From: an uncultured SAR86 cluster bacterium
GTDB lineage: Bacteria > Pseudomonadota > Gammaproteobacteria > Magnimaribacterales > D2472
Direction of reading: 5' to 3'
Assembly (NCBI GenBank): GCA_902520725.1
Contig: CABYPB010000006.1
Coordinates: forward strand, 8,310 to 72,309
DNA: 64,000 nt
Below the pieces are notes generated by a model. That model saw nothing but the letters and a program-made list of their open reading frames with translations, ran no database searches and had not been told where the DNA came from. Shown here one piece after another: positions 25,907-44,139 of the stretch. Position 1 is the stretch's first letter. The number at the start of each line of letters is the position of its first letter. The position numbers and the translations under genes are program-made.

Positions 25907-27274
25907 ATGTCGTTAATTAATACTAACAAATACTCTACAATATCTCTAATGAACATTGTTGAAAGCAACATAATCCAAAAAACTTTATTAATATACATTG
26001 AAGTAGATTCTTTAAATCAAAAAGAAAAATTAGAAAAAAGTTATGATGAATTCTATAGCTTAGCTCAATCATCAGGGGTAGAAATAGTAAAGGCTACAAA
26101 GTTTAAACAAAAGATTCCGATAACAAGCTCGTTTATTTCTAAAGGAAAATTAGATCAAATTAAAAATGAATTAATAGACCTAGACGTTGACCTAATAATT
26201 ATTAATCATCAACTTTCTGCCTCACAAAACAGAAACCTTGAAAATTTTTTTGCTAAAAGAGTAATTGATAAAACTGAATTAATTCTTGATATTTTTGCAA
26301 CAAGAGCTTCGTCCTATATTGGTAAGCTTCAAGTTGAACTCGCTCAATTAAACCATCTATCAACGAGACTAATTAGAGGTTGGACTCACTTAGAAAGGCA
26401 AAAAGGTGGAATTGGATTAAGAGGCCCAGGTGAAACTCAGTTAGAAACAGATAGACGTTTAATTGGTAAAAGAATTAAAAGGCTTAATTTAAGACTCGAC
26501 AAGGCTCATAAACAAAGAGAGATAAATAGATATTCAAGAAAGAAGAGTAGAAATAAATTAGTAGCATTAGTTGGATATACAAATGCTGGAAAAACGACTT
26601 TATTTAATAAACTAACTGAAAGTATGCAATTAGCTGAAGATAAATTATTTGCAACATTAGACTCTGTAACAAGAAAGAATAAGGCTCCTGATCATGGACC
26701 AATTTTATTTTCAGATACAGTAGGTTTTATATCTGATCTTCCAACTCAGTTGGTAGAATCATTTAAGGCAACACTAGATGAGCTAAAGACAGCTGATCTT
26801 TTATTACATGTTGTTGACATTTCAGACACTGATCACAAAATAAAAGTTCTTGAGGTTAATTCAATACTTGAAGAGTTAGGACTAGAAAATATTCCACAGA
26901 CAATAGTTAACAATAAATGTGATTTGGTTTGTAATTCCAAGTTAAGCCCAATGATAAAAAGAAAACATGATGAGATATTTATATCTGCTGAGAATGAAAG
27001 TGAATTTGAAGATCTTCGCTCATCTATCAATAAAAATCTTTTCAATGGATTATATGAGGGCTGGGTGTCTCTTGATACAAGTCTTGGAAATATTAGGTCT
27101 CAGCTTTTTGATATGGGATGTGTTGAGGAAGAAAAAATTTCATCAAACGGAACTATGTTTGCCAATATTAAAATAGGTAATGACGAATTAGATCAATTCA
27201 TAGGTTTGAAAGGTTTTGAACTTTGTCATGATAAGGATATACTTTTTGAATCAATTAAGCTTAAAACAAATTAA
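25907..27274 (+). CDS. hflX: GTPase HflX
   Basis: 'LQVELAQL', 'GGIGLRGPGETQLETDRR', G1 'GYTNAGKTTL' and G3 'DTVGF' are present. Confidence 0.9.
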   Translation: MSLINTNKYSTISLMNIVESNIIQKTLLIYIEVDSLNQKEKLEKSYDEFYSLAQSSGVEIVKATKFKQKIPITSSFISKGKLDQIKNELIDLDVDLIIINHQLSASQNRNLENFFAKRVIDKTELILDIFATRASSYIGKLQVELAQLNHLSTRLIRGWTHLERQKGGIGLRGPGETQLETDRRLIGKRIKRLNLRLDKAHKQREINRYSRKKSRNKLVALVGYTNAGKTTLFNKLTESMQLAEDKLFATLDSVTRKNKAPDHGPILFSDTVGFISDLPTQLVESFKATLDELKTADLLLHVVDISDTDHKIKVLEVNSILEELGLENIPQTIVNNKCDLVCNSKLSPMIKRKHDEIFISAENESEFEDLRSSINKNLFNGLYEGWVSLDTSLGNIRSQLFDMGCVEEEKISSNGTMFANIKIGNDELDQFIGLKGFELCHDKDILFESIKLKTN

Positions 27275-27275
27275 T

Positions 27276-27698
27276 ATGAAAAAATTAAATAATATTCTTG
27301 AATCAATCGCAAAACCACTAATGCCGATAACTCCATGGTTATTGAGACTTGGTCTTGGAACTTCATTCATTCTACACGGAATTGGAAAATTTCCATTACC
27401 TCCAGAGAAAATGGTCACTTGGTTTGAGAGTATGGGATACATGTATCCTGAAATTGTTACAAGCATGGTTGCTGTTGGAGAAGTTGCTGCTGGGGCAGGG
27501 ATTATATTAGGTGGACTAATAAGCGGTCATAAAGGAAACCTTATAACAAGAATTTCAGGTGGAGCGGTTGGAGTCATTATGATTGGCGCAATTGTTATAG
27601 CCCATGCAGATTGGTTAGTTACAAAAAAACTATTTATGAGCGAACAAATATTCCTATTCTTACTAGGTACATATTTCGCAATAAAAGGTAACGACTAA
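27276..27698 (+). CDS. DoxX-family membrane protein
   Basis: I prefer the ATG at 27276 (MKKLNNILE...) immediately after the hflX stop over the track's start at 27216 inside hflX. The product has 'LGLGTSFILHGIGKFP' and four TM helices. Confidence 0.6.
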   Translation: MKKLNNILESIAKPLMPITPWLLRLGLGTSFILHGIGKFPLPPEKMVTWFESMGYMYPEIVTSMVAVGEVAAGAGIILGGLISGHKGNLITRISGGAVGVIMIGAIVIAHADWLVTKKLFMSEQIFLFLLGTYFAIKGND

Positions 27699-27783
27699 AA
27701 ACACTTCTTTTGATTTTCTTATTTACTATTATTCTTAGATATTTCTTTATTTAAATTTATTTATAAAAACTACTTGCAAATCT

Positions 27784-27809
27784 AAATGAGAATCATTATC
27801 ATTCTCATT
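27784..27809. promoter_or_regulatory. Fur box upstream of the second TonB-dependent receptor
   Basis: 'gagaatcattatcattctc' matches the Fur consensus at 15/19 positions by hand count. It lies about 125 nt upstream of the start codon. Confidence 0.8.
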
Positions 27810-27932
27810 CATGGAAGCTACTTTATTGGTCATTCCCCTAAAAGTGTGCAGTTTTTGAGATTTTTATAATCAAAAAATCTTTAGGCGAAAAAAGGTAGCT
27901 TTCATTTTTAAAAATATTATAGGGAAAAAACT

Positions 27933-30134
27933 ATGAGTAAATTAATAAATAAATTTTTAAATGATGTATCTCCAATATTTATTATTGGATTTCTAGTACT
28001 TTCTTCTTTGGTTGTAAATATTAGTGCAGACGATGAAGTTGAATCAGTAACAATTATTGGAACAAAAGATGATGTTAAAGATTTGCCAGGATCAGGTGCA
28101 GTGATATCAAATGATGATCTTCAAAAGGCAATGGACACAGATATACAGAAGATTTTAACTGCAGTTCCAGGTATTTATATGAGAACTGAAGAAGGTTATG
28201 GTCTAAGACCTAACATTTCTATAAGAGGTACTGCTATAGAGAGATCAGGAAAAGTTACAATAATGGAAGATGGTGTTTTGGTTGCTCCATCACCATATAC
28301 TTCGTCTGCAGCATATTACTTCCCAACAACTGGAAGAATTCACTCTGTTGAAGTATTGAAAGGACCAGCAGTTGTATCACAAGGACCACAGACAATTGGT
28401 GGCGCAATTAATTTAATTAGTACGCCTATACCTGAAGTGAATTCAGGTAAATTTGTTCAAGAAATTGGTGAGAATGGTATGGCAAGAACGCATGCATATT
28501 ATGGTGCAAGCCAAGGAAACTTCGGTGCTTTAGTAGAAGTTCACGAACATTCAAGTGATGGCTTTGACTCTATCGCTAATGTTGGCGGTGACACTGGTTT
28601 TGATAAATCAGACTTAATGATTAAAGCAAGATATAGCTCTGGTAATCACACAGTAACTTTTAAAAGAGTCGATTTAGATGAGGATTCAAATCAATCATAC
28701 GTAGGTCTTTCTCAGGCAAGTTTTATGGCTAATCCTAGAATGAGATACGGAGCTACAGCATACGACAAAATGATGAACGATGGAGAACAAACATCATTAA
28801 CTTATGTTGGTGACTTTGATAACTTTGATGTTGTGTTTACATCATGGCAGAACGATTATCACAGAGATTGGTTCAAAGTTAGTGATTTCAATAACGATAA
28901 AGAACATGGAGAACAAGATGATATCAATGAGCTAATTAGCGACGCTAATAATGGAAGTGCTAATGCTCAAGCTATCTTAGATGGCCAACTTCCTGTTGAA
29001 ATAGAATACAAACATAACAATAGATATTATACAAATGAAGGTTATCAATTTACTGTCTCAACAGAAATAGGCGTTCATGCTTTGACAGTTGGATACAGAG
29101 ATATGGAAGATTCTGAAAGCAGAATTCAAGCCCATGAATATGCTGATCAGGCAGCTGATGGATCGTTATCTGCTTTATATGGATATGTTGGATTAAGTGG
29201 CAGTAACAATAGATTGAGAGAATCTAGTGCAACTTCTTACTATTTAGAAGACACAATGGACTTTGGAAAGCTAGCTGTAACAGTTGGTTTTAGATCAGAA
29301 GAATATGATCAACGTCACAGAAGATGGGGTGAAGGAGCAGGCCCAAACCTTACTGCAGTAAGAATTACTAGCGTAAGAGATACTTTTGCTGAAAATGATC
29401 ACAACACATCAAGTTTTGGTGCTACATATGACTTAAATGACACAACAACTTTAGTCGCTGGATTCCATGAAGGAATGACACCAATGTTTGGTGCTGATCC
29501 AGAGGAAGCTGATAACATGGAGTTAGGTGTAAGGTATTCAGAAGGTACTACAAACATTGAAGCTTTTTATTTCGCAAGTGATTATTCAAGATTAGCTGCT
29601 GAATGTACTTTAGTAAGTGGCGCCTCATGTGATGCAGATGAGTCTGCAGTATTTAGTGGTGGTGAAGCTGAAGTTTCAGGTCTTGAGTTTAGTGGTTCTT
29701 GGATGTTACAAGGAGATAATGGTGTTGTTTACCCAATCTCAGTTAACTATACAAGCACCGATGCAACATTTAAAAATAGTTCAAGTAGTGATTATTTTGG
29801 AACTGTTTCGGCTGGAGATGACTTACCATATATCCCTGATTCACAAAGTTCTATAGTTGTAGGATTCATTAATGATAATGGTCTAAGTGGGAATGCAAGA
29901 CTTGTAAACGTTGGAAGCTCATGCTCACTTGCAGCATGTGGAACTTATAATGAAATTGAAGCACATAGTTATTTAGATCTAAATCTTAGAAAGGCTCTAA
30001 ATGATTCTATGAGCGTCTATTTTATACTTGAAAATACACTTGATAGTGAGGATTTAATTTCAAGAGCACCTTCAGAGGGAGCTAGATCACAAAAACCTAG
30101 AACAATGAAAGTTGGTTTTTCATACGATTTCTAA
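27933..30134 (+). CDS. TonB-dependent outer-membrane receptor (iron-regulated, substrate unknown)
   Basis: It has a signal peptide and a plug ('PGSGAVISNDDL', 'RPNISIRGT', 'VEVLKGPAVVSQGPQTIGGAINL'). The C-terminal beta-strand ends 'KVGFSYDF'. Confidence 0.85.
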   Translation: MSKLINKFLNDVSPIFIIGFLVLSSLVVNISADDEVESVTIIGTKDDVKDLPGSGAVISNDDLQKAMDTDIQKILTAVPGIYMRTEEGYGLRPNISIRGTAIERSGKVTIMEDGVLVAPSPYTSSAAYYFPTTGRIHSVEVLKGPAVVSQGPQTIGGAINLISTPIPEVNSGKFVQEIGENGMARTHAYYGASQGNFGALVEVHEHSSDGFDSIANVGGDTGFDKSDLMIKARYSSGNHTVTFKRVDLDEDSNQSYVGLSQASFMANPRMRYGATAYDKMMNDGEQTSLTYVGDFDNFDVVFTSWQNDYHRDWFKVSDFNNDKEHGEQDDINELISDANNGSANAQAILDGQLPVEIEYKHNNRYYTNEGYQFTVSTEIGVHALTVGYRDMEDSESRIQAHEYADQAADGSLSALYGYVGLSGSNNRLRESSATSYYLEDTMDFGKLAVTVGFRSEEYDQRHRRWGEGAGPNLTAVRITSVRDTFAENDHNTSSFGATYDLNDTTTLVAGFHEGMTPMFGADPEEADNMELGVRYSEGTTNIEAFYFASDYSRLAAECTLVSGASCDADESAVFSGGEAEVSGLEFSGSWMLQGDNGVVYPISVNYTSTDATFKNSSSSDYFGTVSAGDDLPYIPDSQSSIVVGFINDNGLSGNARLVNVGSSCSLAACGTYNEIEAHSYLDLNLRKALNDSMSVYFILENTLDSEDLISRAPSEGARSQKPRTMKVGFSYDF

Positions 30135-30178
30135 ATATTGTTAGAGGAGAGGGGTGCTACTACATACCCCTAAAAATC

Positions 30179-30207
30179 AAGGGATGTTTTAAACATCCCT
30201 TTTTTTA
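30179..30207 (+). terminator. Rho-independent terminator
   Basis: The hairpin 'gggatg-ttttaaa-catccc' is followed by T7. A second hairpin, aggggt..acccct, lies at 30150-30171 just upstream. Confidence 0.8.
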
Positions 30208-30221
30208 AGTAGAATATACTA

Positions 30222-30767
30222 ATGAAAGATTTTCTAAAATATGATGATACCCAGATTTTTAAATATGACAATTTAGTTCTTGCTGTCATTTATACAATTG
30301 GCCATATATTGGTTGCAATGACATGTAATAGGATTATTACAGGTGCTTCCTTAGATATGGCTGCAGCTGATGCATTTATTGAGCCAATTATTAACGGTTT
30401 CTGGTTTTATTTTTTATTAGTCTTTTTAAAAAATAAAATTGAACAAGGCTTAATTAATAAACCAATTCCTATTCTTAAAAATATCAATGTAGGTATTTAT
30501 TTAGCAGTGATTTACACGATTGGTCATATATTAATTGCAATGACATGTAACAGGTTGCTCACTGGAGCACCATTAAACTTAGCAGTAATTGATGCATTTA
30601 TTGAACCAATAGTTAATGGTTTCTGGTTTTATTTATTATTTGAAGTTTTCAATAAGTATAAACAAAAATATAGGCCTTCTGCAGCTGGAAAAAGCAGCAA
30701 GAATCCATCTTCGTCAATGAAAACCTCAAAGCTTGCTCCAATAAATAATAAAAAGAATTTAGATTAA
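30222..30767 (+). CDS. Membrane protein made of two tandem DUF2061-like modules
   Basis: There are two roughly 50-aa near-identical segments: 'VIYTIGHILVAMTCNRIITGASLDMAAADAFIEPIINGFWFYFLL' and 'VIYTIGHILIAMTCNRLLTGAPLNLAVIDAFIEPIVNGFWFYLLF'. Confidence 0.6.
   Translation: MKDFLKYDDTQIFKYDNLVLAVIYTIGHILVAMTCNRIITGASLDMAAADAFIEPIINGFWFYFLLVFLKNKIEQGLINKPIPILKNINVGIYLAVIYTIGHILIAMTCNRLLTGAPLNLAVIDAFIEPIVNGFWFYLLFEVFNKYKQKYRPSAAGKSSKNPSSSMKTSKLAPINNKKNLD
30282..30642 (+). repeat. Intragenic tandem duplication (about 140 nt units, 222-nt period)
   Basis: The DNA of the two modules (about 30282-30420 and about 30504-30642) is visibly alignable, with most differences at third codon positions. Confidence 0.7.
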
Positions 30768-30813
30768 AGATACACAAATCTATTCATTAAAGTACAATAT
30801 TCCAACAAAATGT

Positions 30814-30889
30814 GGGGCTATAGCTCAGCTGGGAGAGCACCTGCTTTGCAAGCAGGGGGTCCGCGGTTCGATCCCGCGTAGCTCCACCA
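30814..30889 (+). tRNA. tRNA-Ala (TGC)
   Basis: The sequence GGGGCTATAGCTCAGCTGGGAGAGCACCTGCTTTGCAAGCAGGGGGTCCGCGGTTCGATCCCGCGTAGCTCCACCA has the G3:U70 identity pair and anticodon TGC. It stands alone and is not in an rRNA operon. Confidence 0.95.
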
Positions 30890-30890
30890 T

Positions 30891-31283
30891 TTATAAGTAC
30901 CCTTGATTTTCGCAAAATTTTAAGAACGTATTATGATCAACATTTAATATTTTTATCTTTGATGGATCAAAATCTAATTTAAATAAGTACTTTTTATTAA
31001 CTTGACTAACCAAATAAAAACTATTTTCAGAACTACTAATAGATATTTTTCTGTTTTTTATAAAATCAAGCCAACAGTTAGAATATTTTTTATTGTTATC
31101 TAGACTTGTAAAGCTAAGATAAGCATTATCTCTTATAACTTTTTTTGCTTTAGCGCTCGACTCTAAATTAAGAATACTATAGTTTTGATTTGTGTCCTCT
31201 ACCTCGAAATAAATATAATTTGCATTAGCATAAAATGCACAAAAGCAAAAAAATATTAAAAGACTAGAAGTCGTCTTCATCAT
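30891..31283 (-). CDS. Small exported hypothetical protein (gene 6 of 6)
   Basis: The likely start is at ATG 31283 or 31280 (MMKTTSSLLIFFCFCAFYANA/NY). It overlaps the 3' end of gene 5 by about 20 nt, and its stop abuts tRNA-Ala. Confidence 0.5.
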   Translation of the reverse strand: MMKTTSSLLIFFCFCAFYANANYIYFEVEDTNQNYSILNLESSAKAKKVIRDNAYLSFTSLDNNKKYSNCWLDFIKNRKISISSSENSFYLVSQVNKKYLFKLDFDPSKIKILNVDHNTFLKFCENQGYL

Positions 31284-32664
31284 CTCCAGCAGATGATCCA
31301 CCTTCAGATTGACCTTTACTTTCTAAATAATCAAATGTGTCTTGAGCTTCACCACTCATTAAGGCATCAGATGGCGTCCATGCCATAACAATTCCAGCAA
31401 TAGGTTGACCACCAAATGTATGCTTATTTTTCCATCTATAAAGTTCATAGTCACCCTTTAAAGTTCCACTTGCTGATGCAGCGACTCTTTGTTCACTAGA
31501 ATTATCACTCCAATAATCAATCATTCCTGTATCCATTTCTGTAGTTGTTTCTTGAGTATTTATACTCTGAGTTAAGTCTATATTTTCATCTCTTAGTTGT
31601 ATAATAGCTCTTCTTGCTTTTAAGGTAGCATTATTAAATGCTGTTATTTCTGAAGCCGCGCTATCAGTTGCAATTCTTTCTTGGGCATAACTTATTACAC
31701 TCATTTCTCCAACTTCATTTCGAACCATAAATGCACCAAAAGTACCTTGCAAGGCCTCAAAAGCTTTCATTCCACTTCTATAAATTTCTTTATCGTATTG
31801 CTTATTGTAATAAGGAATATTTTTTACCAACGGTACGCCTTTTTTTTGATTCTGTAATCTGGAATAATCACCACTTGTCATAGCATCGACATCAGCTGCA
31901 AGTTTACTACTCCAGATAGCCACATTACACACGGTAGTTTGTTTTTGGCCTTTGCCAAGAGAATAGGCTGAAAAAACAGTTTTCATACCTCTAACTGATC
32001 CACTTGCGTTTGCAGTAACACTGTCTTTAAAGGTACTTTGATTAACTATATTATTTATCTTGTCTTCTAATTCTTTTTCTTCAATAGTGTTACTTGCAAT
32101 ACCTTCTTTTGTCTCTGGGTCAACAAGCTTATCAAGTTGTTGATTGACTAGAACTTTTGTTTTTTCATATATTGACATATCTTCATAGTTTTTTAGGTTT
32201 TTAGCAGATTTTCCTGATGTCCCTATAAAAGTTGGCTTTTCACCTTCTTTAATTTGTTGAACCATTTGGCTAACTATTTCTGATGTTATTTCTGTTGACA
32301 TTGATTCAACCAACTTTCTTTTAGAATCAAGTTGGGCGTTAATCGACGCATTCATTGATGAGGTTATGTAGTTACTAGAATCTACTGGAGACTTAATTTC
32401 ACTTATGCCTATAGCAACAAAATACTTTGACCCATTTGATTTTTTATTCGTACCCTGCTTCCATTTTTTTTCAATATTTACATAATCTTGACATTGCTGA
32501 CCAACAACATTGTTATTATTTGCCCCAGAACTTTCAGCTTCTTCCCATGCAGCTTCTCTATCAGACAGCTCAGGATTGTCATCTGCTGACAAAGATAAAT
32601 TTAAAAAAGATATGGCTGCGAAAAAGAATATAGATTTTTGCGTTAAATTTTTCATAATTTTCAT
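31264..32664 (-). CDS. Exported hypothetical protein with acidic C-terminal tail (gene 5 of 6)
   Basis: I prefer the ATG at 32664 (SD AAGGGG at 6 nt). The signal peptide is '..FLNLSLSA/DD', and the protein ends 'GGSSAGDDEDDF'. Confidence 0.6.
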   Translation of the reverse strand: MKIMKNLTQKSIFFFAAISFLNLSLSADDNPELSDREAAWEEAESSGANNNNVVGQQCQDYVNIEKKWKQGTNKKSNGSKYFVAIGISEIKSPVDSSNYITSSMNASINAQLDSKRKLVESMSTEITSEIVSQMVQQIKEGEKPTFIGTSGKSAKNLKNYEDMSIYEKTKVLVNQQLDKLVDPETKEGIASNTIEEKELEDKINNIVNQSTFKDSVTANASGSVRGMKTVFSAYSLGKGQKQTTVCNVAIWSSKLAADVDAMTSGDYSRLQNQKKGVPLVKNIPYYNKQYDKEIYRSGMKAFEALQGTFGAFMVRNEVGEMSVISYAQERIATDSAASEITAFNNATLKARRAIIQLRDENIDLTQSINTQETTTEMDTGMIDYWSDNSSEQRVAASASGTLKGDYELYRWKNKHTFGGQPIAGIVMAWTPSDALMSGEAQDTFDYLESKGQSEGGSSAGDDEDDF

Positions 32665-32730
32665 ATACAACCCCTTTAGAATGTTAGAAATCTGTAAATT
32701 CCATAGATAATAATACCTATTATTAATAAA

Positions 32731-33993
32731 TTACCAATTTTCATCAAATTCCTCCTCAATTTTTTTTCTGACCTCTTGTTGTTTTTTTGCATTATTGTTT
32801 TTATTCATACTTTCTGGAAGCGATCGAATAATAAAAGTTTTTGGTTTAAATTTTGATTCTAGATCTTCAACACTTGTATTTATTATTTTTCCGTATGACA
32901 TTTTAGAAGTTACTTCAGTGATTTCTACCATACCTATTATGTTCTCTTTGCGACCAAGACTTTCTTTTGTGTAAGAATCTACAATTTTTTCGCCATACTG
33001 AATCAATCTATACCTATCCCCAATATTAACAATGTCTCCCCCGGTTCCAATAATAATATTGTTACCTTCTATTTTTTCAACAACAAAAGGATATATCGCT
33101 TCTAAAATCTTTAATCCTAAACTATCGGCAATGCTTGATATTGAATCTAACGCTCCCTTTACAGGATCATTAATTGACTTTACTTTTCCATTAAGATTTT
33201 TACTAAAAGTTTGGGAGAATTTTACTTGTCCTGTTGGAACATCAATAATTCTATAGCTGATTCCAGTATTACCTACTATTGTAGAAATTGATTTATCAAC
33301 TGTTTCTAGCTTTCTAGTTTGATTTTTTAAAGATAGCATATTTACAGTCCCAACTAAAACATAGTCTGCTACTAGCTCTTGTCCCATCTTTGCAAGTTCT
33401 TTTATGGGAACATTATCAGAATTCAATCTAGCTTGTTCTTTATTAGTTTGAGTTTCATAAGCTCTATCAAGAACAGTAAATTTTCTTGTTTGAACTAGAT
33501 ATGATGAGATTGCAGCAGTAAGTTCTTGACTAAATGAAGCTCCATTGATTTCGGTTTTGCCAACTCTACAACAACGATCTCTATATTTTAAATCAAGGAC
33601 AGCTATACGCTTCCTATTGGCAGTTTTTGAAGCTTTAAATTTAATAACAGAAACCTTTAATTTAACTTTATATATTCCTGCATTCTTTGAAGTTGATATG
33701 ACATCGTAACTATCTACAACGCCTTTAGTTCTTGATTTTATTTTATCTTGGTATTCTGAAGAACCAAGATATTCTTCAGTTTGATTTTTAGTACTTAATT
33801 TCTCGCTATTTTTGCTAAGGATTTCTGATTCTATAGATTTGCCATTTATTCGTCCCATGGCCTCCGTAAGACCCCTATCAATTGCTGATTGAAGATTCTC
33901 TCCATATCCTTCAACCTCTATTTTGACTATTTGAGTACTTGCTGAAACAAGTCCAGCAAATACAAGAGAAATTATTAGAAAATACTTATTCAA
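32731..33993 (-). CDS. Exported multidomain protein: LPP20-like N-term, CsgG/FlgO-like core, FlgT_C-like C-terminal barrel (gene 4 of 6)
   Basis: Its TTG start overlaps the gene 3 stop by 8 nt, and the signal peptide is '..AGLVSA/ST'. The core 'KRIAVLDLKYRD...SFSQELTAAISSYLVQTRKFTVLDRAY...ELVADYVLVGTV' parallels E. coli CsgG 'KIFVSVYNIQD...TAMLVTALKDSRWFIPLERQG...AANIMVEGSI'. Confidence 0.6.
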   Translation of the reverse strand: MNKYFLIISLVFAGLVSASTQIVKIEVEGYGENLQSAIDRGLTEAMGRINGKSIESEILSKNSEKLSTKNQTEEYLGSSEYQDKIKSRTKGVVDSYDVISTSKNAGIYKVKLKVSVIKFKASKTANRKRIAVLDLKYRDRCCRVGKTEINGASFSQELTAAISSYLVQTRKFTVLDRAYETQTNKEQARLNSDNVPIKELAKMGQELVADYVLVGTVNMLSLKNQTRKLETVDKSISTIVGNTGISYRIIDVPTGQVKFSQTFSKNLNGKVKSINDPVKGALDSISSIADSLGLKILEAIYPFVVEKIEGNNIIIGTGGDIVNIGDRYRLIQYGEKIVDSYTKESLGRKENIIGMVEITEVTSKMSYGKIINTSVEDLESKFKPKTFIIRSLPESMNKNNNAKKQQEVRKKIEEEFDENW

Positions 33994-34693
33994 TATCTAA
34001 TTCTAACTCACCAACTTTCTTCTCTGCTCCACGAACGTCTAAGCCATTTTTTTTTGCAAATGAAAGAAGTCCGACGGTAGACTTACCTAAGTTTACAATT
34101 AATTTTGGTACAGTCTTACCTATAAACATACCGGTTTGGAGTGTACCTTTTAATTTTCTTATTTCCATTGGATTTCTAATGCTTTTTAATTGATTTTGAG
34201 CAGCATTCATAAACTCTCCTATAGGCTCACTTAAAGCAGCTGTTCTTGCTACAGAGGTTAAATATGGAGCTAAGGCTTTTGCATATGCAGATTTTGCATC
34301 ATCTGACATTTCCTGGCCTTCTTCAAATGTTGTTGATTGAGCTGAAACAGTATCACTTGAAAGTGTAAGTGCACCTTTAATATCTTCCTGACTAATACTA
34401 TCTCCAAGAATATTATTAGCTGTATTATTTAATTCTGCAGCCTTTTCTTTATTTCCTTTAGCCTCTTCAATCATTGCTTGAGCTTTTAGCACGTCACTTA
34501 ATGCAGATTGAAGAGAAATAATAAGTTGAGCTTGAGCTTCATCTATATTTAAAGTTGGTGCCTCTTCTTCAGCTTCATCGCCTCCAGTTATTGCAGATAA
34601 TGGATTTTTTATGTTTCCAAATGGATTGGCTTCAATAATGTTTGCATAACTAAATCCAAAAAAGATTGTGAACATTAATATTATTTTTTTCAT
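33986..34693 (-). CDS. Exported Ala/Glu-rich helical hypothetical protein (gene 3 of 6)
   Basis: I prefer the ATG at 34693 (MKKIILMF...), which is preceded by SD AGGAGA at 7 nt. The signal peptide is '..FGFSYA/NI'. Confidence 0.6.
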   Translation of the reverse strand: MKKIILMFTIFFGFSYANIIEANPFGNIKNPLSAITGGDEAEEEAPTLNIDEAQAQLIISLQSALSDVLKAQAMIEEAKGNKEKAAELNNTANNILGDSISQEDIKGALTLSSDTVSAQSTTFEEGQEMSDDAKSAYAKALAPYLTSVARTAALSEPIGEFMNAAQNQLKSIRNPMEIRKLKGTLQTGMFIGKTVPKLIVNLGKSTVGLLSFAKKNGLDVRGAEKKVGELELDIE

Positions 34694-34715
34694 AATTTGT
34701 CTCCTCATTTATAAA

Positions 34716-35837
34716 TTATAATTTAAGCATTAATGAATTAGTTGCTTCATTAACTGCTTTTTTAAGTGCATTTTTTTCAGATAGCACATCTGTTTCCCCA
34801 AAAGCTGATTTTATTTCAGGACCGACTGATGCAACAATCATTGGCCCGAATCTTGGATTAATTTCATAAAGCTGCATGCTTACCAAAACATCAGATTTAT
34901 ATGCTCCTGTATCCAAATCTTTACGAGCAATACTAGAGTCCACAGTTCCAATAAGAAGATATACATCACCAAAATTAACTTCATTCATCAAATTACCTAT
35001 TTTTACCCTAGTTCTTGGTGAAATATTAGCTCCAAAATCTCCTACTTTTCCTGAAAATTGATCTATAACTTCTTTTAAAAAATATTTCCCGCTTAGGTCT
35101 TCCAGCATCGCAGCTTCAACAGTCATCATTCCTAACTTAGAGAGAACATCACTAATTTGTGCATAAGCATCGTCTAGATCCCCAATGTCATATGTTCTAT
35201 CTGTTGCTTGTCTTTTAGTCTTACCACCAGTTGTGATTGATTGCATTTGAGTTGAATTTTCTGTTATTGATACAGCACCTTCATCAATAGTAGTAACTTC
35301 GTCAGCACTTAAAGCATTTTTTGTCATTGACTGTTTAGTAACTCTTTCATCAAATATATCTTCATCAGTAGTTTTTCTTGGAATTACTAATGCAAGAACT
35401 GCTTGACCTTGAAGATTTTGTTGTCTTTTTGATGGAGAGGATTTTTTTACTAGGCTATTAGTGAATCTTGCTTCATTTATTGTTGCTCTTATTGAAATCT
35501 GGTAATTTCTGTCAGTTTTTGAGCAATCAGTGCTTAAGATTATATAGTCAGTAATGTATGAATCTAAATCAGATAAGTACTTTTGCTCAGATGAAGAATA
35601 CGCATCGTACATATCAGATGAGAGTGTTGATGTATATTTCTCCCAGGCTGACTTTTTTGCTTTTTCAATTGCTTCAAAGTGTTTGTTTCTATCTACAGGT
35701 TTACCATCTCTGCATGTTGATCGATTTAATTCTACGCTTGCAAATCCTTTTTCAGTAATATTTTGAGCAAAAGAACTTACAGAAAAGAAAATTACGAATA
35801 AAATTGTAGACAAGAAATATGTTGTATTTTTGTACAT
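34716..35837 (-). CDS. Exported hypothetical protein with LPP20-like N-terminal module (gene 2 of 6)
   Basis: It has the signal peptide '..FFSVSSFA/QN' and starts 1 nt after the gene 1 stop. 'FEAIEKAKKSAWEKY' and 'GDVYLLIGTVDSS' are reminiscent of LPP20/CsgG-type lipoprotein folds. Confidence 0.6.
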   Translation of the reverse strand: MYKNTTYFLSTILFVIFFSVSSFAQNITEKGFASVELNRSTCRDGKPVDRNKHFEAIEKAKKSAWEKYTSTLSSDMYDAYSSSEQKYLSDLDSYITDYIILSTDCSKTDRNYQISIRATINEARFTNSLVKKSSPSKRQQNLQGQAVLALVIPRKTTDEDIFDERVTKQSMTKNALSADEVTTIDEGAVSITENSTQMQSITTGGKTKRQATDRTYDIGDLDDAYAQISDVLSKLGMMTVEAAMLEDLSGKYFLKEVIDQFSGKVGDFGANISPRTRVKIGNLMNEVNFGDVYLLIGTVDSSIARKDLDTGAYKSDVLVSMQLYEINPRFGPMIVASVGPEIKSAFGETDVLSEKNALKKAVNEATNSLMLKL

Positions 35838-35838
35838 T

Positions 35839-37122
35839 CTATAATCTTATATTTTTTTTAATGTAATTAACATGTTTCTTAAAATCTTTTGAAGACATTT
35901 TGCTGGCTTGTTTTAACCATTTTTTATCAAATGTATCTATATTTGAAACATAATCTTTCATTATTTTATTCTGTGAAAAATTGAATGTATCCCAATCGTC
36001 GAAAGTTTGATTTTTATTTACCTCTTGAGTATGAATATACTTCAAATCAATTTCTGTTATTTTTTCGATTCCAACATTGTGAAATTCTATTTTAGAAAAG
36101 GCAGCCCATGCATATGCCTCTCTGAGTTTAGACTCATCCAGCTTTACTTTCTTAAAACCTCTAATATTTATTACAAAACCAAAATCTAAATTTGGTAATC
36201 TTAAATTTAGTAGCTCATTTGCATCTTCATATTTGTCAGATATTTTTAATCCAAGTGCTTTGCCTTTTACGTAAGGTATTAAAGGCAGGTTAAATGATTC
36301 TGAAAACCATTTCGAAAATTCTTGACCAATCCAAACTTTATAAGCTTGCTGCTTAAACTTATTATTAGCACCTAAAAAATAATTATTATTTATAAATTCT
36401 TTTTCGCCAGACATTTGACTCAAAGCAAGCTTTCCTAATTGAACATCATCTATTCCAATAAAAAAATTAGTATTTGTGATAGAACTTAAGTTAGTAGATA
36501 AAATTTCATTACTTATTCTTTTAATAAAAGCTTTTTCATATATAAATCTTGAATCTGTATAGAGATTTTTAATTTGTTCAACCATTTGAGAATCATCCAA
36601 AATGAGAAAATTTTCGTATTGATTTTTTGGGATTTCCAAACCAAAGAAAGTTTGAGCAAATCTAAGGAGTTGAGTTTTCTTATTTATTTTCTTACAGTTA
36701 GTACCCTTATCCAAATACCTTCTATTTATTGCATAGGGTTTTATTGAAACAATTTGAAGTTCTTTAGCATTGAAAACTACTACTTGGCCACTTAGACTGT
36801 AAGTGCTAACACATGATATTTGATCTTCAACTATACTTTCAATGTTCATAATATTTTCACTGTCTAGTGCAACTATTACCTGGTAAGAACCATCTTTGAA
36901 TGTTTTAGAAACCTCAAGACTAAGTTCAGGATTTTTTGATTTATTTTGTCTTAAGTCATCAGAAAGAAAAGCTATTAAACTATCTTCAATTTTAAGGGTG
37001 TTGGGATAAGCTATTTTTATATCTGCTTCTTGTGAAACATAGGATAGGCCACTGTATTGAAGGTAGTCTCCAAAAAGATTCAAGTTTAGAAATAAAGTTG
37101 TAAAAAATAGAATTTTTTTCAA
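35839..37122 (-). CDS. Exported hypothetical protein (operon gene 1 of 6)
   Basis: It has a TTG start and the signal-like N-terminus 'MKKILFFTTLFLNLNLFG'. No motif was recognised in the 427-aa product. Confidence 0.6.
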   Translation of the reverse strand: MKKILFFTTLFLNLNLFGDYLQYSGLSYVSQEADIKIAYPNTLKIEDSLIAFLSDDLRQNKSKNPELSLEVSKTFKDGSYQVIVALDSENIMNIESIVEDQISCVSTYSLSGQVVVFNAKELQIVSIKPYAINRRYLDKGTNCKKINKKTQLLRFAQTFFGLEIPKNQYENFLILDDSQMVEQIKNLYTDSRFIYEKAFIKRISNEILSTNLSSITNTNFFIGIDDVQLGKLALSQMSGEKEFINNNYFLGANNKFKQQAYKVWIGQEFSKWFSESFNLPLIPYVKGKALGLKISDKYEDANELLNLRLPNLDFGFVINIRGFKKVKLDESKLREAYAWAAFSKIEFHNVGIEKITEIDLKYIHTQEVNKNQTFDDWDTFNFSQNKIMKDYVSNIDTFDKKWLKQASKMSSKDFKKHVNYIKKNIRL

Positions 37123-37296
37123 AATATTACTTTAACTCGAAATATATTAGCTCGATTCATATTAGATATCCTATCAAAAATTGGAAAATATAAACAATAA
37201 AATTACTTGCACAAAAAATAGATATAAAAATATATATTTTAAGTACTTTTTTTTTCTTTTTTTGATAATATATAAGTGTTCAAATATATAAACTAA

Positions 37297-39468
<2,172 letters not shown>

Positions 39469-39469
39469 A

Positions 39470-40723
39470 CTATTTAGCTTCTATAGTTTTTTTATTAGAT
39501 AGTGATTGGAAGAAATATATTCCGATCACTATCAGCATATTTGTTGATAGCTGAGCAACTAGAAGCTTGGTTGATAAAAGCTCCATACTTAGCAAATTAG
39601 TTGAGTAAATACCTAAAATTCCAATAACTGAAGAAATAAGAATTAATTGATATCCCTTTCTATTACCTTGTAATAGGTATCCTGTTAATGAGGCTAAAGT
39701 AATCAAAGATATTCCAAAAATAGCAATCTCAGAATAAGAATGAAGTGATGTAAATGTTAATACTGCACCGGAAACCACTGTTGTAAATAACATTTGGATA
39801 AAGCTAAATAATTTAATATCAAAACTAATTTCAGGATTATATTTCTTGTAGAAATCATTTGGATTTTTTTCTTCAATGCAATCTTCAGGTCTCCAATATG
39901 TCTTTGAAAACCAAACCTTAACTTTATTTTTCCAAGATTTAGTTTTAATACTATCTTTAAACATAATTGAATAAATTTGAAAGTTAGCCCATATGGGATT
40001 CCAACTACTTAATGGAGTTGCAGTTCCATAGACAGGTTTAATATCTGGTCTCTCAGCAATATAAGTTCCAAACATTCGATCCCAAATTATAAAAACACCA
40101 CCATAATTAGCATCTATATATTCTTTGTTTTTAGCATGATGAATTCCATGATTCATTGGAGTAATCAATATCTTTTCTAATATTCCCAAATGTCCAATAT
40201 GTTTTGTATGAACCCAAAATTGATAAACAAGATTGATTCCAGCAACAGTAATAAATACCTCAACAGGAACTCCAATAACCATCATAGGTACATAAAAAAT
40301 CCACTTCCAAAGCCAGCCAGTGCTTGTTTGTCTTAATGCTGTTGAAAGATTAAAGTCTTCTCCATGATGATGCACGCTATGTGTTGCCCATAATATTTTT
40401 ATTTCATGATGCATTCTATGCATCCAATAGTAAGAAAGATCATAAAGAAGAAATGCTGCTATCCATGTAAATGGATTTTTAACAGACAATAAACCTAAAT
40501 TTAAATACGAGCTTAAATAGAGAAATATTACGCTTTGAACTCCTAAATTAAGCATTGTTGGAAATCTGCTAATCATACCTATAGCAATACTAGTAACCGT
40601 ATCATTTAAACGATAAGTATTTTTTCCAACGTATAAACCATAGAAGTATTCAATGATAATTAGCAAAAAGAATACTGGAATAGCAAACGTAATAATTAGT
40701 GATTTATCTGTAATTACTTCCAT
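39470..40723 (-). CDS. Fatty-acid hydroxylase / sterol-desaturase-family membrane di-iron enzyme with an extra C-terminal polytopic domain
   Basis: The histidine boxes are 'HRMHHE', 'HSVHHH' and 'HGIHHAKN'. The last 130 aa or so form additional TM helices. Confidence 0.75.
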   Translation of the reverse strand: MEVITDKSLIITFAIPVFFLLIIIEYFYGLYVGKNTYRLNDTVTSIAIGMISRFPTMLNLGVQSVIFLYLSSYLNLGLLSVKNPFTWIAAFLLYDLSYYWMHRMHHEIKILWATHSVHHHGEDFNLSTALRQTSTGWLWKWIFYVPMMVIGVPVEVFITVAGINLVYQFWVHTKHIGHLGILEKILITPMNHGIHHAKNKEYIDANYGGVFIIWDRMFGTYIAERPDIKPVYGTATPLSSWNPIWANFQIYSIMFKDSIKTKSWKNKVKVWFSKTYWRPEDCIEEKNPNDFYKKYNPEISFDIKLFSFIQMLFTTVVSGAVLTFTSLHSYSEIAIFGISLITLASLTGYLLQGNRKGYQLILISSVIGILGIYSTNLLSMELLSTKLLVAQLSTNMLIVIGIYFFQSLSNKKTIEAK

Positions 40724-40750
40724 TATGTTTAAATTATATAAAAATTAGCC

Positions 40751-41563
40751 TCAATTTTCCTTAATGACCTTAAGGGCACCTAGAACATTACCATATTCTC
40801 TATTATCTGCAAAATTTCCTTTTACATTCGCCAGCTTCAGTCTATCCAGAATACCAATTTTAATAGTCTTATTTAAAGAGGTTCTTCCTAAAAAATAAAC
40901 CTCGTCTAGGCCGCATATCATTGCATTAAGATATGAAATAGTTCCAATAACCTCTCCAATCATATTTGAAAGAGATGCTGCTATATCTTCTGATGAGTGT
41001 TTTTTAATAATTTTTCCTTTAACAAAATTTGATGCAGTAATCTCTGGATAAAGTGATCCAATTTCATTAACTGCATCACCTATTAGTAAATCTAGCGATT
41101 CTCTTTTACCAGAGCTTGCTAATTCTTCTATTTGAGATGGTTTATTTGTACCGATTATATAATTTGAAAGTCCTTGCAAAGTGCCTCCACCAATAGATAT
41201 ACCACCCAAATGATTAAATTTTTTATCTGCATGATAAATACAAGCAGTTCCAGTTCCTGCACTAATAGCTACGAATGGCTTATTATTAATACCATATAAC
41301 TCAATTGCTCCATAGCCAATTGCATCAACTTCATTAACCTTGATAATGGGTATATTATTGAATGAATTATTTAAATTACTCGATTTACCACCAGTAACTG
41401 CAATTTTTTCTACTAGATCTATATTTAACTTAATAAAATCAAATATCTCTAATAAAAAATCGTTATTTATTTTTTTTGAAGGCATAGAAAAAAATTCTAA
41501 ATTACTCTTATTAGAAATAGCTACATCTGTGTTAGTAATACCGAAATCAATTCCAACTATCAT
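40751..41563 (-). CDS. coaW: Type II pantothenate kinase (CoaW-like, ASKHA fold)
   Basis: 'IVGIDFGITNTD', 'AISAGTGTA', 'GGISIGGGTLQGLSNYI', 'TASNF' and 'YGNVLGAL' parallel S. aureus CoaW 'KVGIDAGGTLIK', 'NVGTGTS', 'GGIGTGGGMIQGLGYLL', 'TAANFG' and 'SGAIGAL' (recalled). Confidence 0.65.
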   Translation of the reverse strand: MIVGIDFGITNTDVAISNKSNLEFFSMPSKKINNDFLLEIFDFIKLNIDLVEKIAVTGGKSSNLNNSFNNIPIIKVNEVDAIGYGAIELYGINNKPFVAISAGTGTACIYHADKKFNHLGGISIGGGTLQGLSNYIIGTNKPSQIEELASSGKRESLDLLIGDAVNEIGSLYPEITASNFVKGKIIKKHSSEDIAASLSNMIGEVIGTISYLNAMICGLDEVYFLGRTSLNKTIKIGILDRLKLANVKGNFADNREYGNVLGALKVIKEN

Positions 41564-41949
41564 TTTTCTTTTGATAAAATTAACAGACCAGCCAGAATTC
41601 CAAGATTTTTCACAAAATTTTGTATTTCATGTCCTTGGTCAGGACTTCCCTTAAGATTCCAAAAGTCATGTATATAAAAATTGATTAATAAAGTTGTGAT
41701 AACCAAGCTTATTGAGCTTACTTTAATATTTTTCCCAAAAATTATCCAAATGCCACAGACAATTTGAGTTACAGCAATCAGTGAGAGTGAAAATGATGGT
41801 AAGGGAACCTCCTTGCTAATAACAACACTAAGGTTATCTGAAAATAGAAGAATTTTTGCAAGTCCTGGCAGTAAGAAATAAACTCCAATCAAAACTCTAC
41901 CTATAACAAAAAGATTTTTTGTAAGATCAAATGATCTTGAATAGATCAT
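41560..41949 (-). CDS. DoxX-family membrane protein
   Basis: It has 'GRVLIGVYFLLPGLAKI', 'HDFWN', 'FVKNLGILAGLLIL' and four TM helices. An ATGA overlap links it to coaW, and its start abuts the upstream stop. Confidence 0.7.
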   Translation of the reverse strand: MIYSRSFDLTKNLFVIGRVLIGVYFLLPGLAKILLFSDNLSVVISKEVPLPSFSLSLIAVTQIVCGIWIIFGKNIKVSSISLVITTLLINFYIHDFWNLKGSPDQGHEIQNFVKNLGILAGLLILSKEK

Positions 41950-44139
41950 TTATTCTGAGGCATTTTCAGGCCATTCCATGGGTATTTGTTGTTGAGGATT
42001 AAAAACTTTTGACCCTATAGCAGGATAAGCAGTTGAAGCTGCAAAAATTTCCTCTTCACTTAGATACTCACTTGGCGTTAGTTTGAATACATCTAACCCT
42101 CTTGTAATTTCTGTGCCATATATAAAACCGTCGTAATAATATGTTGACCAATAACCACCTGTAATCAGAATATCTTCAAGTATTGGACCTCTATCAAAAT
42201 AAGCTATTTCAAATGGCTTAGAGGAATCTGTGAAATCTATTATTGAGATACCACCTTGATACCAGGCTTGTACAAAAATATCTTTATTTGGAATTGGAAT
42301 GATGGATCCATTATGTGCAACACAATTTTCTGTCTCTAGTTGAGGAGCAGGCATTTTGTAATGACTTTTAAAATCTAACTTATTATCAACGATGTCGTAA
42401 ATTGCATCAGCGCCCCAATCCAGTGGATCCCATGCACGGCATCTTGCTCTTCCACCACCTCCCCATTCATCAGTAAAAATAACTTTTGTACCATCATTAT
42501 TAAAAGTTGCAGAATGCCAATATGCAAAACCAACATCTGTAACAACATCTAGTCTCTTTGGATTATAGGGATCAGAGATATCGAATAATATTCCATTTCC
42601 GGAGCATGCGCCTGCAGCAAGGTTTGCAGATGGAAATACTGTAATATCATGACATTGATTGGTTGTATTTGTATCTTGAGTATCATCACCATGATCTCCA
42701 CCTCTCCATAAACCAGCAATGTTACCTGTTTCTAAGTCCATAAAAACTTTTGGGCTTTTTACAATTTTTGATTTTGAGGGATTATTAACTGGTATTTCAA
42801 TGATATCGATTGAGAAATAGGATGAACCTCCTCCATCCCAACCAAAACAATCAGCCTTTTCTTCATTGTCTCTAACACGTCCTGTACCAGAATTATAAAC
42901 AATAATTTTAGCTTCTTTTTTTGAGGACGATACAACAGAATGTGTATGTGAACCTCTGCATGTTTGGACAGCTCCTACCTGTTTTGGCTCATATAAATTA
43001 GAAATATCAAAAATTCTAATTCCTCTAAATCTTTCAGGACTAGAATCTCTATTCACTCCTTCTAAACCACAGTCTATTCTGCTTCTATTCTCTTCAACTG
43101 ACATAATTAAAAGGTTATCTACTATAGAAACATCTCCTTGTCCGCCAGGACATACCACTGATGAAACTAGATTTGGAATACCACTATCACTAAGTTCATA
43201 AATATTGAATCCATGATAGCTACCTGCTACTAAAATATTATCTTTGAAGGCCATATCAGTGTTAGCAAAAGACAACATTGGCGATCTTAAGGATCTAGAA
43301 ATTTCTGCAGTTGTTTTATTTTCGTTATCTTCAGTTAAATCTTCTGAACCTTTTTCAGCTGGATTTTCAGGATCAAAAAAACCTGTTGGCTTTTGAAGGG
43401 ATGTTACTAGCTCCATATTCAAGATAGCCTCTTCAGCAATGAATAAACCTGCTGCTAATCCAGATCTAGGATCATCTGATAATCCAACCAATATAATGTT
43501 CATTCTTTCTATTTCTACACCTTGATCATTTATGAGGTCAGAAACAAATTCATTCAAGATTGGATCATATGAATTGCCTGGATATTTCTTCAATTCCTCA
43601 ACCATTTCTAATGCACCATCATGATGATTGATCATTAATTTTAAAAACAATCTATCAAAATCGGTACCGTTAGAATTTTTTAAGTCATCAAGTTGTTTTG
43701 GTGTTGCCATTCCTTCCATTTTCATAGATGCATGCATTTTATGATTTTGGTGACCATTGTTTGCAACATTATTAAATTCATCTCTATCTTTTAACCAGCT
43801 TTCCATAAAATTAATTTCATCTTTTTGAGAGGCATCAATTCTTTTAGCTAGGTCGATTATTGTTTCATTATTAGTTCTGATGTCAGCCATCTCAGACATT
43901 AATATTGCTTGTTCGTGATGGACAATCATCCCTTGAAGGAATTTAACATCAGCATTTATATATGATGTATTTGCAATATTTGTCGCTTCAGATTCATTTA
44001 AAACTTTTGATGGATATCCAGGAGCACCAGGTTGAATTATTGGAGCATTTTCATTATTGTTAGCCACTAATAACTGGTTTGAAAGTACTAAAATATATAA
44101 AATTACATAGCTCCTTATAAATAAATTATTCTTTTTCAT
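41950..44139 (-). CDS. Exported DUF305 (HH-motif four-helix metal-binding) + LVIVD-repeat beta-propeller fusion protein
   Basis: I prefer the start at MKKNNLFIRSYVILYILVL (44139). It contains two DUF305 halves, 'FLQGMIVHHEQAILMSE..Q..EINFMESWL' and 'FLKLMINHHDGALEMVE..Q..EIERMN'. Repeated 'G..i.DiS.p..P' LVIVD-like blades follow. Confidence 0.75.
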   Translation of the reverse strand: MKKNNLFIRSYVILYILVLSNQLLVANNNENAPIIQPGAPGYPSKVLNESEATNIANTSYINADVKFLQGMIVHHEQAILMSEMADIRTNNETIIDLAKRIDASQKDEINFMESWLKDRDEFNNVANNGHQNHKMHASMKMEGMATPKQLDDLKNSNGTDFDRLFLKLMINHHDGALEMVEELKKYPGNSYDPILNEFVSDLINDQGVEIERMNIILVGLSDDPRSGLAAGLFIAEEAILNMELVTSLQKPTGFFDPENPAEKGSEDLTEDNENKTTAEISRSLRSPMLSFANTDMAFKDNILVAGSYHGFNIYELSDSGIPNLVSSVVCPGGQGDVSIVDNLLIMSVEENRSRIDCGLEGVNRDSSPERFRGIRIFDISNLYEPKQVGAVQTCRGSHTHSVVSSSKKEAKIIVYNSGTGRVRDNEEKADCFGWDGGGSSYFSIDIIEIPVNNPSKSKIVKSPKVFMDLETGNIAGLWRGGDHGDDTQDTNTTNQCHDITVFPSANLAAGACSGNGILFDISDPYNPKRLDVVTDVGFAYWHSATFNNDGTKVIFTDEWGGGGRARCRAWDPLDWGADAIYDIVDNKLDFKSHYKMPAPQLETENCVAHNGSIIPIPNKDIFVQAWYQGGISIIDFTDSSKPFEIAYFDRGPILEDILITGGYWSTYYYDGFIYGTEITRGLDVFKLTPSEYLSEEEIFAASTAYPAIGSKVFNPQQQIPMEWPENASE

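Follow-up and report, generated by a model that had tools for sequence, protein, structure and literature searches.

An operon of exported proteins conserved in SAR86 and other bacteria encodes a FlgT-like protein and may specify a non-flagellar periplasmic scaffold

The FlgT, FlgP, and Lpp20 families of ring-building proteins have so far been known mainly from flagella. In Vibrio, the LP ring is surrounded by the H ring, which is composed of 26 copies each of FlgT and FlgP, and the C-terminal tail of FlgP (Q133-F143) lies in a groove that the 26-mer FlgT ring provides (bioRxiv 10.64898/2025.12.04.692373). FlgP, Lpp20, and FlgT share an SHS2-like fold, Campylobacter FlgQ resembles two FlgP repeats, and an insert following the SHS2 helix is correlated with the ability to form rings (PMC12222027). 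Here, we describe an operon of six genes (g1 to g6, in order of transcription) at positions 30891-37122 of a 64,000-nucleotide stretch of contig CABYPB010000006.1 (hereafter, the window) from an uncultured SAR86 cluster bacterium. Our most likely reading, to which we give a probability of about 0.5, is that the six Sec-exported products assemble into a non-enzymatic multi-protein scaffold near the outer membrane, a non-flagellar relative of the FlgT/FlgP/FlgQ rings and disks. The domain types involved are known, whereas the system itself is undescribed, as are its partners and its occurrence in a non-flagellar setting. A preliminary description of this DNA had proposed a self-contained envelope scaffold, pore, or ring; as we discuss below, the operon of exported proteins and the novelty of the system hold up, a CsgG-type pore does not, and a scaffold or ring is what we infer from the likenesses of the parts.

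The connection to the flagellar rings is made by g4 (positions 32731-33993; 420 residues), which, like the other five genes, lies on the minus strand. In Pfam and NCBIfam scans, g4 alone among the six window proteins matched any family directly. Against Pfam CsgG (PF03783), it scored 31.9 bits versus a gathering score of 20.8 (E 1.1e-7), the match covering profile positions 5-152 of 210 only, and against Pfam LpoB (PF13036) it passed as a domain, with 27.2 versus 22.3 bits (E 4e-6). Matches to g4 that fell below threshold were those of FlgT_M (E 0.013; 16.2 versus 31.2 bits), of FlgT_C to the consensus of the C-terminal domain (E 0.11; 13.4 versus 27 bits), and of LPP20 (PF02169) to the consensus of the N-terminal domain (E 0.023; 15.5 versus 25.9 bits), which was the best LPP20 match obtained. 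The FlgT_N model of Pfam did not match g4. Homologues of g4 number in the hundreds in marine metagenomes and are annotated as CsgG by the Joint Genome Institute (JGI), and some carry precomputed PF16539 matches.

We modeled g4 with AlphaFold2 from a 53-sequence alignment, at a mean predicted local distance difference test score (pLDDT) of 75.6. A Foldseek search of the PDB with this model returned Vibrio FlgT first (3W1E, 8Z5N), with E 3.6e-20 over 403-410 aligned columns; sequence identity was 13-16%, and the template-modeling (TM) scores were low (0.29-0.34) because inter-domain orientations differ. Other matches involved the middle domain only, and these were CsgG (4UV2/4UV3), CT253, HpaA, GNA1162, TolB-N, and PelC at E ~7e-8 to 1e-5. 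In the model, an SHS2/LPP20-like N-domain (residues ~20-119) is followed by a TolB-N/LpoB/CsgG-like middle domain (~123-300), a beta C-domain like FlgT_C and TsaP (~303-391), and a charged helix with the terminal residues FDENW. The N-domain consists of a strand (20-31), a helix (34-50), an insert (~51-92), and two further strands (93-104 and 107-119), and it aligns inside the full-length FlgT match. This SHS2-like, TolB-N-like, beta-domain order is that of FlgT (3W1E; LPHT ring, 8Z5N), which is likewise periplasmic. Based upon the model, we describe g4 as a FlgT-like protein of three domains and not as a CsgG pore. A CsgG/FlgO-like core had been assigned to it earlier; the CsgG gathering score is passed, but the Pfam and NCBIfam scans found no FlgO match and FlgT fits the full length better.

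Other features of g4 are its own. The vicinal Cys141-Cys142 pair at the start of the middle domain provides the sole cysteines of g4, is invariant in all 53 aligned homologues, and could form inter-subunit disulfides or bind metal. The motifs LVQxRKFTxLDR and DSYTKESLG are also invariant. The C-terminus (window 32731-32745) fits a [DE][DE]x[WY] pattern that is conserved in SAR86, SAR11-type, Colwellia, Desulfobacteraceae, and other loci. FlgT differs from g4 in both the invariant cysteine pair and the charged C-terminal helix with its acidic-aromatic end. The g4 C-domain also aligned, weakly (E 0.16, profile versus PDB sequences), with the repeated beta domains of TsaP (6VE2), which forms a ring around PilQ, the aligned motif being G-G-D ... 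D-S-Y-T-K-E-S-L-G; this match implies that the same type of C-domain is used in a non-flagellar protein. Unlike TsaP, g4 has no LysM domain, and no secretin gene lies nearby.

The g4 middle domain has the alpha-beta core of CsgG (4UV3), LpoB, and TolB-N, and one could imagine curli-like (type VIII) secretion, with g4 as a CsgG-type channel and the other products as substrates or CsgE/CsgF-like accessories. The Pfam match above threshold, the JGI annotation of homologues, the Foldseek matches to 4UV2/4UV3 (1e-7 to 1e-6), and the long disordered tail of g5 are all compatible with this model, but multiple observations make it very unlikely. First, the CsgG match is confined to the middle domain, leaving N- and C-domains that CsgG does not have, and the full-length FlgT match is better by 12 orders of magnitude. 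Second, neither g4 nor any of 35 orthologues has a lipobox cysteine, and hence the lipid anchor of CsgG is missing. Third, by inspection of the model, the tip of the long hairpin at residues 211-251 (KNQTRKLETVDKS) is charged or polar and the loop at 176-196 is disordered and polar, which argues against an amphipathic transmembrane hairpin. Finally, Pfam and NCBIfam scans of the operon and the scanned neighbors found neither repeat proteins of the CsgA/B kind nor CsgE or CsgF. With the lipobox, the transmembrane hairpins, and the curli partners all missing, we rejected a curli pore.

The second product with a structural assignment is g5 (31264-32670; longest open reading frame [ORF] 468 residues), a member of the DUF6844 family that is homologous to the Francisella antigen FTT_1539c. 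Window g5 by itself matched nothing in Pfam; DUF6844 (PF20891) was matched by 12 of 19 g5 orthologues (best E 8e-12) and by the g5 consensus (E 2.6e-8; 34.3 bits versus a gathering score of 27). A g5 profile found 4QVR, the structure of Francisella tularensis FTT_1539c, among PDB sequences at E 6e-36, and the AlphaFold2 model of g5 (pLDDT 68.2) found the same entry by Foldseek at E 3.7e-9. The set had been presented as proteins of unknown function in an undescribed assembly, but g5 is not entirely new, as a family name and a solved, uncharacterized homologue already exist. Self-comparison with hhalign revealed an internal duplication (positions 68-253 versus 296-422; probability 94%), and each copy consists of a beta-hairpin, a long helix, an insert, and a second beta-hairpin. 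The C-terminus of g5 (window 31264-31290) is a disordered acidic tail ending ...DDEDDF, with D[DE][DE]DF present in all orthologues; the Vibrio partner tail also ends in phenylalanine. In a 51% GC lineage (loci L039/L040, 4600-11666), a DUF6844 protein ending ...ADDDAF is encoded amid different neighbors, namely two lipoproteins and 490- and 456-residue proteins without a family match, with extracytoplasmic function (ECF) sigma factor genes nearby. The g5 family thus pairs with more than one partner set.

Modules of the kind seen in the g4 N-domain may recur in g5 and g2. The second module of one distant g5 homologue matched the g4 N-domain profile (E 1.8e-4), and residues 68-121 of g2 (34716-35837; 373 residues) aligned with residues 66-117 of g4 in a profile comparison (hhalign probability 70%), so that, as judged from these alignments, an N-terminal module of ~100 residues in g2 probably resembles the SHS2/LPP20-like N-domain of g4. 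Fragments of g5 and g2 did not match Pfam LPP20, and g2 matched nothing in Pfam or among PDB sequences. LPP20-like modules had been proposed for g2, g4, and g5; they are plausible in g5 and in the N-terminal parts of g4 and g2, although no Pfam LPP20 match is above threshold. The beta-alpha-beta modules with an insert in g4, and probably in g2 and g5, recall FlgP and FlgQ of the Campylobacter/Helicobacter basal disk and H. pylori Lpp20, and FlgQ, like g5, is a tandem pair of modules (PMC12222027). The window proteins differ from these in that they are not lipoproteins, are three to four times larger, and occur in a non-flagellar context.

A reduced relative of the operon is present in Francisella. 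The locus (L038, 8106-13825) encodes, in order, an LpoB-family lipoprotein, FTT_1539c (g5-like), a 327-residue g4-like protein, and a 464-residue lipoprotein. The 327-residue protein (FTT1538c) matches the middle and C-domains of g4 (hmmsearch 2e-31). FTT1537c-1540c is a predicted operon, and a transposon mutant of FTT1538c is mildly attenuated (PMC4696196). FTT1539c is associated with outer-membrane vesicles (PMC4696196, PMC10963506) and is a recurrent immunodominant antigen recognized by sera of mice immunized with such vesicles (PMC10963506, PMC4207810, PMC6013578). The Francisella and SAR86 versions share adjacent g5- and g4-type genes and exported products. By contrast, the Francisella version has four genes, two of them for lipoproteins, lacks g1, g2, g3, g6, and the g4 N-domain, and has g5- and g4-type tails that end …LNQY and …YLTK, unlike those encoded in the window. 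The trio of LpoB-like lipoprotein, DUF6844 protein, and g4-like protein also occurs at L030 (7438-11194) and L032 (4502-9833), the reduced layout extends to Kiritimatiellae, and a short contig (L034, 2012-3609) has only the LpoB-like and g4-like genes. A YcfL/DUF1425 lipoprotein is encoded upstream of the cluster at L030, and a large lipoprotein (464-489 residues) is encoded downstream in Francisella and at L032. In the reduced clusters, the order of the g5 and g4 homologues is opposite to that in the window. In the literature searched, we found no functional description of DUF6844, of a SAR11 CsgG-like protein, or of a non-flagellar FlgT-like protein, and no mechanism proposed for FTT1537c-1540c.

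The lipoproteins of the reduced clusters bear on a possible role in regulating peptidoglycan synthesis or envelope coordination, in which the LpoB-like domain of g4, and the separate LpoB-like lipoprotein of the reduced version, would contact a penicillin-binding protein (PBP) or Tol-Pal and the remaining products would modulate this contact. In these clusters, the gene for the LpoB-family lipoprotein immediately precedes those for the g5 and g4 homologues, the one YcfL/DUF1425 lipoprotein can be set beside E. coli, in which ycfL adjoins lpoB, and the fold is common to the TolB N-domain. The strength of the LpoB match depends upon the model used: Pfam LpoB matches g4 above its gathering score, but the NCBIfam LpoB model TIGR02722 gives g4 19.6 bits (19.6-24.6 with orthologues) versus an equivalog cut-off of 110.55. 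Moreover, g4 lacks a lipobox, no PBP gene adjoins the operon among the flanking ORFs scanned, the LpoB/TolB-N/CsgG/PelC fold is generic, and five further conserved exported partners would be left unexplained. We therefore consider a regulator of this type unlikely.

Could the operon serve a flagellum or pilus whose genes lie elsewhere in the genome? The products would then be an H-ring or a TsaP-like type IV pilus collar. FlgT is the best structural match of g4, the C-domain of g4 bears a weak likeness to the domains with which TsaP encircles the PilQ secretin, and the operon is present in Colwellia, which is taken to be flagellated. Such an assignment is nevertheless rather improbable. To our knowledge, SAR86, SAR11-type bacteria, and Francisella are non-motile and have no flagellar genes, and yet the operon occurs in SAR86 and SAR11-type contigs and its reduced form in Francisella. 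In line with the preliminary description, a scan of ten ORFs that flank the operon in the window (25907-45138) found no flagellar, pilus, or curli family, and no flagellar or pilus genes were found within 8-10 kb at any locus examined (including L036, L038, and L020); the Colwellia copy lies by apparent tatB/tatC genes, which were identified from N-terminal sequences only. Finally, Pfam and NCBIfam scans gave no FlgO, FlgP, MotX, or MotY matches for the six products, and g1, g2, g3, g5, and g6 are unrelated in sequence to these partners of FlgT. A collar around a pilus secretin is conceivable even so, because pilus genes may be located in other parts of the genome.

The remaining products, g1, g2, g3, and g6, match no named family, and for g1-g3 neither sets of orthologues nor consensus fragments add anything. 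The g1 protein (35839-37122; 427 residues) has no match in Pfam, in NCBIfam, or among PDB sequences, and in hhalign comparisons with the other operon profiles only the signal peptides align. In a set of 1.84 billion proteins, its family accounts for only 179 representative clusters (E<=1e-3), most of them matching residues ~255-420, and the C-terminal ~170 residues are the conserved part. The Opitutales orthologue of g1 has a lipobox, LAGC. The g3 protein (33986-34708; longest ORF 240 residues) is rich in Ala, Leu, and Glu, has a Gly-rich N-terminus, is free of cysteine, and is predicted to be helical. Its PDB sequence matches are weak and consist only of designed helical bundles and spectrin, in accord with its earlier description as an Ala/Glu-rich helical protein, and one orthologue matched the periplasmic chaperone ZraP (E 0.002, far below the cut-off). 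One SAR11-type subclade has a ~547-residue protein in the g3 position (L022, 8026-9669; L023, 8325-9971; L018, 1083-2723; L021, 135-1772), compared to ~220-240 residues elsewhere, and these larger proteins match the g3 profile weakly (1e-7 to 1e-8). The g6 protein (30891-31301; longest ORF 136 residues) evolves fast and has two cysteines in its mature part; by tblastn, orthologues are recognizable in 13-14 SAR86-type loci and nowhere else. In SAR11-type loci, the g6 position is occupied by a small exported ORF that is unrelated to g6.

All six products carry N-termini like those of Sec-exported proteins, with a charged n-region, a hydrophobic core, and small residues at -3/-1, as judged by a simple heuristic test of these three properties. 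The same test found a lipobox in none of the six, and none has an internal hydrophobic segment or membrane helix. The export pattern is shared by orthologues, in proportions from 18/22 to 35/35. Sec export of the whole set without lipidation had been predicted, as had an AxA-like cleavage site in five of the six and the lack of any enzymatic, nucleotide-binding, or polytopic signature, and our results agree on each point; g4 has a site like those of signal peptidase I (VSA/ST), and g1 is the product with the weak site (LFG/DY). The mature g1 to g6 proteins contain 2, 2, 0, 2, 2, and 2 cysteines, respectively, numbers that fit periplasmic disulfides and an oxidizing compartment.

A scan of one genome per species yielded 35 loci, mostly from SAR86 single-cell genomes. 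The loci outside SAR86 were assigned to Pelagibacteraceae and other Alphaproteobacteria, Colwellia, Kordiimonadaceae, Desulfobacteraceae, Opitutales, Kiritimatiellae, and Marinimicrobia. By tblastn and profile hidden Markov model scans of all ORFs in these loci, every SAR86-type locus with sufficient flanking sequence contains the complete series g1-g2-g3-g4-g5. The Opitutales, Desulfobacteraceae, Colwellia, Marinimicrobia, and SAR11-type loci also have g1-g5 as a group, in most cases with the order unchanged. Some SAR11-type loci have g1-g2 inverted as a pair, and two loci (L028 and L035) have g1-g4 without a nearby g5. Because at least 20 independent loci of several phyla contain the genes as a group, the set is not a chance run. 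Co-occurrence of the six in related genomes, as had been anticipated, is seen for g1-g5 and g6 in SAR86-type loci and for g1-g5 beyond them. Operon copies in contigs labeled 'Flavobacteriales' (L003), 'Neomarinimicrobiota' (L012), and Patescibacteria (L031) are nearly identical to those of SAR86. These are likely to be mis-binned contigs of metagenome-assembled genomes, and the taxonomic spread is then somewhat overstated.

The flanks of the operon vary. Single-cell genome AG-360-N22 (L004) has the entire neighborhood in common with the window (katG, the tRNA-Ala gene, and the TonB-dependent receptor gene) and keeps the convergent arrangement of tRNA-Ala(TGC) (L004, 13120-13195), whereas other SAR86 loci adjoin infA or DUF1330 genes. 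The flanks change, yet gene order and content are retained in Alpha-, Gamma-, and Deltaproteobacteria, in Verrucomicrobia, and in a Marinimicrobia bin, and this is difficult to reconcile with six independent, co-regulated periplasmic proteins, such as binding proteins and chaperones, that share no common structure. Translational coupling through overlaps and 1-nt gaps, and shared tail motifs typical of one complex, point in the same direction. The lack of an assigned fold for four of the six products and the weak likeness of g3 to the helical chaperone ZraP are what independent proteins might be expected to show, but overall we regard this explanation as having a small chance of being correct.

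Assembly of the products into a scaffold near the outer membrane is favored because g4 is FlgT-like and has an insert, g5 has tandem modules and an aromatic-ended tail, and g2 has a module like the g4 N-domain, and because all six products are exported, have no enzymatic signature, and are translationally coupled. In such an assembly, g4 would be the core oligomerizing subunit, and g2 and g5 would contribute SHS2/LPP20-type modules. The acidic, aromatic-ended tails of g4 and g5 would dock in grooves of neighboring subunits, as the FlgP tail does, and would thus be the docking pegs of the assembly, which is possibly a ring. Helical g3 may be a linker or an assembly chaperone, and g1 and g6 may be adaptors tuned to each lineage. 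Anchoring to the outer membrane could occur via lipidated g1 in Opitutales and via the LpoB-like and other lipoproteins in the reduced Francisella-type version. As regards physiological role, we suspect one in envelope architecture or stabilization, or as a collar around another outer-membrane machine.

A number of considerations weigh against a scaffold of this kind. Ring formation by g4 would be an extrapolation from Vibrio FlgT rings, which were resolved packed around the flagellar LP ring (bioRxiv 10.64898/2025.12.04.692373). Proteins of the same fold work without a ring, for example the TolB N-domain and LpoB, which is a PBP activator by family description. The structural models are of moderate confidence (pLDDT 75.6 for g4 and 68.2 for g5), and the TM-scores to FlgT are low, as noted above; the LPP20, FlgT_C, and FlgT_M sequence matches all lie below Pfam thresholds. 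The signal peptides were called by a heuristic and not by SignalP, and no anchor to the outer membrane or to peptidoglycan is evident in any of the six window proteins. Moreover, g1, g2, g3, and g6 are without a structural assignment and could conceivably have a hidden enzymatic or binding function.

SAR11 and SAR86 are among the most numerous heterotrophic bacteria of the ocean and have streamlined genomes. That a five- or six-gene operon for exported structural proteins has been kept in such genomes suggests an important envelope feature. The operon also links the FlgT, FlgP, and Lpp20 families to an antigen operon of Francisella, which is genetically tractable. A more specific and, in our view, doubtful idea is that the products form a non-flagellar periplasmic ring or disk, built of SHS2/LPP20 and FlgT-type parts, that is common to SAR11 and SAR86 and reduced in Francisella; it may represent a stand-alone ancestor recruited for the accessory rings of flagella. 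If the products do form a periplasmic ring or lattice, they would constitute a concrete non-flagellar relative of the H-ring and basal disk, would bear on the origin of both, and would open a new way of studying how the envelope is built in bacteria that are difficult to grow in culture.

At the level of the DNA, the six genes form one operon. With the longest ORFs, the junctions from g1 to g6 are +1, +7, -8, +60, and -38 nt. Shorter starts are favored for g3 (ATG 34693, ~235 residues), g5 (ATG 32664, ~466 residues), and g6 (ATG ~31283, ~130 residues, of which ~109 would be mature) because Shine-Dalgarno-like motifs lie upstream, including AGGAG ahead of the g3 start and AAGGGG ahead of that of g5. 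The g2/g3 junction then becomes +22 nt and the g5/g6 junction about -20 nt, and these ribosome-binding-site-favored starts reproduce the sizes and junctions first reported for six packed, co-directional minus-strand ORFs. No minus-strand terminator-like hairpin was found inside the six-gene block. The divergent intergenic region between g1 and katG (37123-37326) is the sole sizeable non-coding gap upstream of g1 and is presumed to contain the operon promoter. A promoter scan was uninformative in this 32% GC DNA (36 sites versus 36 expected by chance), and the one sigma-70-like match in the g1-katG gap (minus strand, 37292-37265) has to be read against that chance-level result. An 84-residue plus-strand ORF (33939-34193) antisense to the g3/g4 junction is probably spurious, as AT-rich DNA contains such frames.

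On one side, the operon is bounded by katG (37327-39468), which is divergent from g1, and on the other by a stand-alone tRNA-Ala(TGC) gene (30814-30889, plus strand), which is convergent with the operon and 1 nt from the g6 stop codon. The operon has 31% GC, compared to 32.5% for the window. No integrase, mobility gene, or att-like repeat was seen at the locus, and PADLOC and PHROGs scans gave no matches and hence no sign of a defense system or prophage. We rejected a genomic island on the basis of this native GC content, the flanks syntenic in L004, and conservation of the operon across phyla. The suggestion that this is an accessory locus is therefore not sustained: because the GC content is native and PADLOC and PHROGs found nothing, we classify the locus as a conserved functional module, core rather than accessory.

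Beyond the tRNA gene, a 181-residue DUF2061 membrane protein (30222-30767, plus strand) has an internal tandem duplication, in which the segment AVIYTIGHIL.AMTCNR..TGA......DAFIEPI.NGFWFY occurs twice. Between this gene and that of the TonB-dependent receptor, positions 30179-30201 contain a perfect 10-bp stem (AAGGGATGTT/AACATCCCTT) with flanking T-runs, which reads as a terminator on both strands. Two genes for DoxX-family membrane proteins flank the region (27216-27698, plus strand, and 41560-41949, minus strand), and a 749-residue protein with an N-terminal DUF305 domain is encoded at 41950-44199.

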